A stretch of 44,039 bases of DNA from Escherichia phage NHEP3. Below the pieces are notes generated by a model. The model was not told the origin of the DNA. It was given only the letters and a program-made list of their open reading frames with translations, and made no database searches. Of this stretch, positions 15,151 through 15,827 are shown one piece after another; the first letter of the stretch is position 1, and every line of letters begins with the position of its first letter. The DNA is taken from the sequence record PQ511147.1. The stretch is one strand, 5' to 3'. A program made the translations under genes and the position numbers.

Positions 15151-15513
15151 ATGGCTAAAGCACCACTCTTTACACTTGACCCTAAGCCTACCTTTAAGCT
15201 GCCGATTGAGATCCCGCGCCCTGGTGAGAACGAACCGGGAAAAATGACGTTTACCGTGCGCCACCGCCCGATCGACGAATTTTCGCAGACCATGCAGGAT
15301 ACTGAGCGCAAGTTGTCGGAGTATGACGACAATGACCCTGACGGCTTTAACGTTATGGTCGAAGCCATAATGCACGTCGCTGAAGGCTGGAATCTGCCGG
15401 ACGAATTTAACGCGGAGAACGTCCGCCGCCTGGTGGTCAACTACCCGCGCGCGTTCGGCGTGTTCCATACGTCGTACTACCTCGAACTGATGGGATTGCG
15501 TGAAAAAAACTAA
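15151..15513 (+). CDS. tail assembly chaperone G
   Basis: GGAGAA Shine-Dalgarno before the ATG at 15151; ends at a TAA just after an A7 slippery run; sits before the tape measure. Confidence 0.7.
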   Translation: MAKAPLFTLDPKPTFKLPIEIPRPGENEPGKMTFTVRHRPIDEFSQTMQDTERKLSEYDDNDPDGFNVMVEAIMHVAEGWNLPDEFNAENVRRLVVNYPRAFGVFHTSYYLELMGLREKN

Positions 15514-15827
15514 TTGAGGCGGCGCGACGCTTTTACGGCCCGCCGCCACCCTCCGAAGATTTAGCCGCGAGTTTATGGGGGGCGGCCCCTGAAGACGTTT
15601 GCCCTCCGGTTGCTCTATGGCCTGACAATGCGAAGGTAGTCGCAGTCTTCACAGATTGCTCCACGCAATGGCGTACCGGATTCGGTGGCGCATACGGCAT
15701 CGACTACGGCGTACTGGAATGGCTATTTAATATGCACGGCATCGAAAACGCGCAACGTGCGTTTAAAGATATCAAGCTAATGGAACGCGTTGCGCTTGAT
15801 GAAATGGCGCGGCAGAATCCCGCATAA
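15151..15827 (+). CDS. tail assembly chaperone GT, product of a programmed -1 frameshift
   Basis: A7 run at 15503-15509; the -1 frame is open to a TAA at 15825-15827 and encodes a gpT-like extension (FYGPPPPSEDLAASLWGAAPEDVCPPVALWPDNAKVVAVF...) with no ATG of its own. Confidence 0.6.

Follow-up and report, generated by a model that had tools for sequence, protein, structure and literature searches.

In Escherichia phage NHEP3 (record PQ511147.1, 44,039 nucleotides (nt), the whole of which we call the window), the tail assembly chaperone gene G is separated from the tape measure gene by 697 nt that appear non-coding, and the question raised by this locus is whether part of that gap is translated and, if so, how ribosomes reach it. 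The original prediction, made from the sequence of the window, saw here the conserved −1 frameshift of long-tailed phages, which extends G into a downstream frame, T, and so yields a second chaperone, GT. Gene order, reading frames, an in-phase slippery heptamer, the lack of a start for T and a coding type of conservation all fit that prediction, and we consider a −1 ribosomal frameshift at 15504-15510 to be the very probable source of GT. The frames, the heptamer, the coding constraint on T, the conservation of the junction and the family membership of both parts are direct observations.

Reading frames at the G/T junction

The window is a complete genome of a Dhillonvirus (HK578/SSL-2009a-like) coliphage, in which the order of genes is tail tube (PF08813), G (PF08748), −1 open reading frame (ORF) and tape measure (PF06791); two overlapping ORFs between the tube and tape measure genes are a mark of G/GT chaperones. 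The features that define the junction are these:

15138..15141, plus strand: GGAG ribosome-binding site, 9 nt 5' of the G start, read from the sequence
15151..15513, plus strand: gene G, tail assembly (tape measure) chaperone, 120 amino acids (aa), zero frame; PF08748 Phage_TAC_4, annotated as a 363-nt coding sequence (CDS) in related records
15501..15503, plus strand: TGA that closes the −1 frame directly 5' of the heptamer, from reading of the frames
15504..15510, plus strand: slippery heptamer A_AAA_AAC, in phase, with zero-frame codons AAA (15505-15507) and AAC (15508-15510)
15510..15827, plus strand: T segment, 105 codons and TAA in the −1 frame; PF08809 DUF1799, phrog_680 and a coding-type substitution pattern

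The product of G matches PF08748 from end to end (E 1.4e-23, 83.9 bits against a cut-off of 21.1, with residues 1-120 on profile positions 1-124 of 124). We took ATG 15151 as its start, with the GGAG upstream of it, in place of the GTG at 15103 that is given in a mechanical list of ORFs. The 3' end of the gene reads ATG GGA TTG CGT GAA AAA AAC TAA TTG AGG. The run of seven A's (A7) placed by the original prediction just before the end of G is indeed there, at 15503-15509, followed by the G stop TAA at 15511-15513; we refine this in one respect, since the functional unit is the in-phase heptamer at 15504-15510 and not the whole run.

The G and T frames overlap by 10 nt (15504-15513), the same length as in all Dhillonvirus loci, and the heptamer is therefore the only site at which a −1 shift can join G to T. 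Such an in-phase X_XXY_YYZ slippery sequence inside the overlap is a further mark of G/GT pairs, as is a downstream frame that lacks its own start and ribosome-binding site. The −1 frame stays open to TAA 15825-15827, for 107 codons counted from 15504 and 105 counted from CTA 15510, and the first ATG, GTG or TTG in it is ATG 15732 (codon 77), which is why the list of ORFs holds no entry for T; inspection of the sequence revealed no Shine-Dalgarno sequence for T either.

Coding constraint on the T segment

The predicted T segment matches Pfam PF08809 DUF1799 over the full profile (E 5.5e-21, 75 bits against a cut-off of 26; residues 23-99 on profile positions 1-80 of 80) and phrog_680 with an E of 1.1e-30. 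A third profile, phrog_17368 (213 positions), spans both parts, its first half aligning to G and its last third to T, as is expected of a profile built partly from fused products. A sequence search of the PDB with GT gave no meaningful match, so that no solved structure related by sequence was found there.

Among 20 distinct Dhillonvirus sequences, the variable sites in 15510-15824 fall on T-frame codon positions 1, 2 and 3 in the numbers 22, 11 and 72, the frame contains no insertion or deletion (indel), and the codons that differ from the window comprise 376 synonymous against 87 non-synonymous differences. In the intergenic region just 3' of T, by contrast, variation is even over the three positions (49, 55 and 53) and indels are many. 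The third-position bias, the absence of indels and the Pfam and PHROG matches thus mark the T frame as coding and, on this comparative evidence, it is protein-coding sequence under purifying selection.

These data bear directly on the idea that the −1 frame is open by chance, or is an ORF in decay, and yields no product. Long stop-free alternative frames are not rare at 55% G+C, and 15% of random start positions in fact run for at least 105 codons (though most of these lie inside real genes); a related statistic, the −1 extension past the stops of all long ORFs, is dominated by downstream genes that happen to be in that frame. However, just 1.5% of composition-matched (mononucleotide) shuffles of the 315 nt are free of stops in the T frame, the domain matches lie far above threshold, and the third-position pattern goes together with zero indels and with a frame that more than 100 contigs keep, at identities as low as about 35%. 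The sequence comparisons leave this idea a negligible chance, and we regard it as effectively refuted.

Conservation of the junction in relatives

The original prediction had called for a comparison of the slippery site and the T frame in related phages. Scanning of IMG/VR viral contigs, first with the T sequence and then with a T alignment as query, returned 45 and 80 loci at 36-98% identity, and both the open frame and the heptamer pattern are kept in them. In 131 of the 133 sequences examined, reaching down to about 35% identity in T, either A_AAA_AAC or G_GGA_AAC is followed at once by T[AG]A. Within the first scan, all 15 Dhillonvirus loci read CGT GAA AAA AAC TAA (the heptamer A_AAA_AAC is invariant in every Dhillonvirus sequence compared), 12 loci at 42-44% identity read GGG or CGG, then GAA AAA AAC and TAA or TGA, and 17 loci at 36-40% identity read CTG GGA AAC TGA, which places the heptamer G_GGA_AAC in the same phase and at the same position. 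The second scan gave A_AAA_AAC with an adjacent G stop in 79 of the 80 loci, the other one having G_GGA_AAC with the stop 9 nt later. Phages Tls and eiAU-183 carry A_AAA_AAC too. Since TAA and TGA alternate as the G stop and the codon 5' of the heptamer varies among relatives, the junction is not merely frozen by recent common ancestry; the arrangement and its shift site are conserved despite divergence, as in other G/GT pairs.

The same comparison speaks to the possibility that T is made separately, without fusion to G, by internal initiation or by reinitiation at a non-canonical codon beside the G stop. The sequence UAAUU does offer a T-frame AUU at 15513-15515, overlapping the G stop, and several GenBank records contain short stand-alone CDSs inside the T frame. 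These CDSs, however, cover only 31-51 aa of an 80-position domain; no ATG, GTG or TTG precedes codon 77 of 107, and no Shine-Dalgarno sequence lies 5' of 15513. From locus to locus the T frame has its first canonical start anywhere from codon 4 to codon 82, and none of these starts is conserved, whereas L1 and Y9 of T, which precede any of them, do not vary across lineages. The codon at the AUU position is ATA, AGG, AAA or AGA in relatives, so that no start-like codon is conserved there, and we rejected reinitiation at AUU 15513 on these comparative grounds. Separate production of T is, in our estimate, highly improbable, and fusion to G by a −1 ribosomal shift remains the preferred reading.

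Candidate stimulators of the shift

Directly downstream of the heptamer lie two elements that may promote the shift:

15511..15517, plus strand: 7-nt spacer UAAUUGA, holding the zero-frame stop directly 3' of the heptamer; invariant among the 20 Dhillonvirus sequences
15518..15547, plus strand: candidate stimulatory stem-loop of 7 bp with a 16-nt loop (GGCGGCG 15518-15524 pairing with CGCCGCC 15541-15547), from folding and invariance

A zero-frame stop directly 3' of the heptamer is present in essentially every relative, and from this recurrence we infer a candidate role for the adjacent stop codon as a stimulator. The hairpin, which starts 7 nt 3' of the heptamer, has a minimum free energy (MFE) of −16.8 kcal/mol and a z of −2.0 in a 40-nt window. 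In the 20 Dhillonvirus sequences, 15499-15524 and all 14 stem nucleotides are invariant, and the loop positions 15525-15527 and 15536 vary; third positions are variable in 3 of the first 13 T codons as against 69 of the remaining 92 (Fisher P 4e-4). A hairpin of other sequence stands at the same 7-nt offset in Tls, in eiAU-183 and in a large further group of loci (L081). An ungapped alignment of 35 sequences shows the stem's four basal pairs to be largely retained, other lineages having compensatory changes there: pair 18-41 of this alignment is CG in 17 sequences, GC in 9 and UA in 9, and in none is it unpaired, while the covariation score (0.321) exceeds that of slid controls (at most 0.178) and was reached by none of 500 shuffles. 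The hairpin is thus a likely candidate for a stimulator, as judged from folding and covariation.

Proposed route to the GT protein

For most ribosomes on G, translation would end at TAA 15511 with release of the 120-aa chaperone. The others, a minority, would slip one base back on A_AAA_AAC, where the tRNA-Lys on AAA and the tRNA-Asn on AAC would re-pair with AAA AAA, and would resume at CTA 15510. Their product would be a 225-aa GT (...GLREKN-LIEAARRFYG...), specified by 15151-15510 joined to 15510-15827 with C15510 read twice, and with DUF1799 in its C-terminal half. For such a tandem slippage, in which the Asn is kept, the predicted tryptic peptide across the G-T junction is NLIEAAR; FYGPPPPSEDLAASLWGAAPEDVCPPVALWPDNAK is an example of a peptide found in T only. 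By analogy with lambda, G and the G part of GT would coat the tape measure protein (the presumed client of G/GT), the T part would recruit the tail tube protein, and a fixed G:GT ratio would drive tail assembly. The same analogy (PMC5009743) predicts that tails would need both products and that neither would be present in virions.

A product of almost the same sequence (...REKK-LIEA...) would result from transcriptional slippage, if RNA polymerase added one A in the homopolymeric A7 run and the resulting A8 mRNAs encoded GT in a single frame, with the same change of frame and no ribosomal shift. The run length is, however, not conserved (A7 here, A6 in Tls and three A's in the G_GGA_AAC lineage), whereas the in-phase X_XXY_YYZ pattern is kept everywhere; the constrained flank, made of spacer and hairpin, lies downstream, where stimulators of ribosomal shifting act; and bacterial RNA polymerase needs runs of about nine or more for efficient slippage. 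We therefore hold slippage by the polymerase to be unlikely, and ribosomal slippage on the heptamer to be the better account of the fusion.

Several points weigh against this ribosomal account or against its details. For this phage and its genus, the slip itself, its efficiency and its stimulators are inferred from sequence, and the role in assembly from lambda. A joined CDS is annotated in none of the seven Dhillonvirus GenBank/RefSeq records inspected (phiEco273, SSL-2009a, KarlBarth, EE09, JLBYU60, bob and 101114BS4), and a search of an index of 5.8 billion proteins with the fused GT returned three partial matches and no fusion, a result that says nothing on fusions annotated elsewhere; both gaps, in our opinion, reflect annotation practice and not biology. 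The heptamer A_AAA_AAC is much less prone to shifting than A_AAA_AAG in E. coli (PMC5009743), so that the shift may be of low efficiency and dependent on stimulators; with a weak heptamer, a low-level shift fits and stimulators are therefore plausible. As to the hairpin, the 97-nt fold from the heptamer onwards is unremarkable (z −0.71), RNAalifold gave no consensus structure for the 35 junctions from all lineages, and only the four foot-of-stem pairs are common to the lineages, the upper stem being lineage-specific; a stem-loop conserved throughout the family is accordingly not claimed. In addition, the arms of the stem encode a conserved Ala-Ala and Pro-Pro, so that their complementarity could be partly derived from the protein, and the covariation is drawn from few independent lineages. 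The evidence for the hairpin is, for these reasons, moderate.

Comparison with known systems

The closest annotated relative is the tfmA/tfmS pair of Tls (Drexlerviridae, T1-like; AY308796), which has the same pair of Pfam families (PF08748 for G and PF08809 DUF1799 for T), the same gene order, the heptamer A_AAA_AAC followed directly by TAA (GTA AAA AAC TAA) and a hairpin 7 nt downstream (arms GGCGGUUU and AAACCGCC). In that record tfmS is a two-piece joined CDS beside tfmA, both being named "tape measure chaperone", and the joined CDS is marked as non-experimental. The two phages differ in their T parts (only about 34-35% identical), in the length of the A run (A6 in Tls, A7 in the window) and in the sequence of the hairpin, which differs with compensatory changes.

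The −1 frameshift of the lambda G/GT genes (Levin, Hendrix and Casjens 1993; Xu, Hendrix and Duda 2004, 2013, 2014; as cited in PMC5009743) provides the basis for the tail-assembly role of G and GT, and that source gives a lambda G:GT product ratio of about 30:1 and describes the G-T shift as widely conserved in long-tailed phages (PMC5009743). The window resembles lambda in the position of the site, which in lambda lies between the tube gene V and the tape measure gene H, in the succession of a short G ORF and a −1 ORF without its own start, in a heptamer of the type X_XXY_YYZ and in the presumed logic of a fixed, low GT:G ratio. The differences lie in the heptamer (G_GGA_AAG in lambda, A_AAA_AAC here), in the G stop (adjacent to the heptamer here, not adjacent in lambda), in the gene that follows (H directly follows T in lambda, whereas here the tape measure gene begins 383 nt after T) and in the proteins, lambda G and T belonging to PF06894 and PF06223 (Phage_tail_T) and those of the window to PF08748 and PF08809. 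The window G and T gave no Pfam match to the two lambda families at E <=0.01, BLASTP against lambda found no similarity (E 4.4 for G and 0.15 for T), and hhalign of the T alignment against lambda T returned a probability of 1.3%. The description of the −1 frame as gpT-like in the original prediction thus holds for position and role and fails for the protein family, the domain being DUF1799 and without sequence or profile similarity to lambda T; homology to lambda gpT is not claimed and, as far as these sequence comparisons go, the system is lambda-type by function and position, not by protein family.

The E. coli dnaX frameshift operates in the same host translation system. Its heptamer, A_AAA_AAG, is preceded by a Shine-Dalgarno-like element and followed by a stem-loop. 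Both systems have an A-rich heptamer of lysine codons with a G-C-rich hairpin a few nt downstream; they differ in the last base of the heptamer (C here, G in dnaX) and in the outcome, which is a C-terminal extension here and early termination in dnaX. A GGG/GGGA stretch about 10 nt 5' of the heptamer (15492-15495), part of a conserved Met-Gly codon pair, sits where we take the Shine-Dalgarno-like stimulator of dnaX to sit, and it is presumably a candidate only. A further parallel comes from haloarchaeal siphoviruses, the G-T shift site being A_AAA_AAC in HCTV-2 and G_GGA_AAC in HCTV-1 (PMC5009743). The first is the heptamer of the window and the second the alternative heptamer of its relatives; the host of HCTV-2 is archaeal, and the likeness is one of reported shift sites.

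Annotation of the locus

In the seven Dhillonvirus records, G is called "hypothetical" or is mislabelled "tail length tape measure protein", and the T frame is either empty or filled with CDSs of 31-51 aa that start at an internal ATG or GTG, one of these small T-frame CDSs being named "DUF1799 domain-containing protein". In the library searched, the literature on Dhillonvirus, HK578 and DUF1799 yielded no paper on this site. In Dhillonvirus GenBank/RefSeq records, small "hypothetical protein" CDSs of 31-103 aa lie within the T frame and also among the GCGGGACA repeats (described below), at the following positions of our numbered records:

Record L002, small CDS: 2135-2230
Record L003, small CDSs: 2134-2229 and 2411-2539
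Record L049, small CDSs: 866-1021, 1002-1118 and 1118-1429
Record L050, small CDS: 1002-1118
Record L134, small CDSs: 866-1021, 1023-1118 and 1198-1440

They look like gene-caller artefacts of an unannotated frameshift and of non-coding repeats.

Genome and neighbouring genes

A megablast of 15100-16250 against GenBank phages matched 158 records, nearly all of them Escherichia/Shigella Dhillonvirus phages, with phiEco273 as the best match (95.7%). The same method gave zero matches among 5,426 complete E. coli genomes, and we therefore rejected a resident E. coli prophage as the source. Bases 1-127 are 100% identical to 43913-44039 over 127 nt, so that the window is a complete phage genome with terminal overlap; this identity could represent a short terminal repeat, or an artefact of assembly or of circular permutation. 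The neighbours of the G/T locus are:

14357..15082, plus strand: major tail (tube) protein gene, upstream neighbour of G (PF08813 Phage_tail_3, E 1.3e-32; phrog_584 major tail protein, E 8.6e-74)
15113..15129, plus strand: terminator-like hairpin GGGGCCGTACTGGCCCC followed by T5, between the tube gene and G, from a terminator scan
15831..15864, plus strand: GGGAC/GTCCC hairpin with a U-run directly 3' of the T stop, terminator-like (MFE −21.6 kcal/mol, z −3.4, matched by 0 of 200 shuffles)
16211..18853, plus strand: tape measure protein gene, downstream neighbour (PF06791 TMP_2, E 1.3e-43; PF09718; phrog_24, E 1.7e-181)

A terminator-like GGGGCC(N)GGCCCC with a T-run occurs in three copies with 76-92% identity (9422-9446, 15110-15134 and 28169-28193), and the copy between the tube gene and G may partly insulate the transcription of G/GT from that of the tube gene.

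Repeats and other non-coding regions

The original prediction held that the frameshift accounts for the apparent non-coding gap. This is true of 314 of the 697 nt that separate the G stop from the start of the tape measure gene; the other 383 nt (15828-16210) stay non-coding. They contain an array of same-strand GCGGGACA repeats and, in addition, inverted GTCCC copies that form CGGGAC...GTCCCG palindromes. Exact copies of GCGGGACA number 15 in the window, where 2.1 are expected, and they form two clusters. Some 200 nt of the 383-nt stretch (15945-16150) recur as a direct repeat, with 82-86% identity, at 43438-43645, with a 754-aa AAA_25 (helicase/primase-like) gene just before this copy and the rightward gene block after it. 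Across the 20 Dhillonviruses, the GCGGGACA repeats and the segment 16094-16160 (AGTCTTTCAGACT, a GGGGG-loop-CCCCCC and GTCTGAGACT) are nearly invariant, and the hairpin loops and flanks vary. Rfam gave no match for the GCGGGACA repeat element, which may be an array of iterons or of regulator-binding sites, or a structured RNA leader, and which is unrelated to the frameshift.

Past the second GCGGGACA array, several occurrences of another motif, ATTGGTTGC, and of its complement GCAACCAAT are found in non-coding sequence within 43385-43830. The same motif recurs in a 40-nt repeat pair of the form CTGCAACCAAC...TTGCAAG...GAATTTTG at 10243-10282 and 29379-29418, and these motifs may be promoter or operator elements. 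Finally, a tandem or nested direct repeat at 26869-27120, in a plus-strand ORF, consists of 105-nt units, 65-79% identical, spaced 42 and 63 nt apart, the probable product being a recurring peptide motif of a tail fibre or decoration protein.

Implications for Dhillonvirus and its relatives

The main consequence of this work concerns annotation: a joined CDS, 15151..15510 with 15510..15827, would give Dhillonvirus genomes a correct tail-assembly gene set and remove false small genes, and several of these phages are used in defence-system and phage-therapy work. A frameshift of this kind is already known, being a textbook feature with an orthologue already annotated in T1-like phages, and the site leaves the knowledge of frameshifting and of tail assembly unchanged; it adds one more well-conserved example of G/GT, in which a clean 10-nt window pins the shift site.

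We put forward, tentatively and as a proposal that may well not hold, that A_AAA_AAC is made productive here by the stop directly 3' of it together with the G-C hairpin 7 nt downstream, so that the G:GT ratio would be set differently from that of lambda. With the stop in this position, slippage would compete with slow decoding by release factors, possibly with the tRNAs in the P and E sites. If this were true, the Phage_TAC_4/DUF1799 family would represent a natural bacterial −1 frameshift stimulated by a stop codon and a hairpin.

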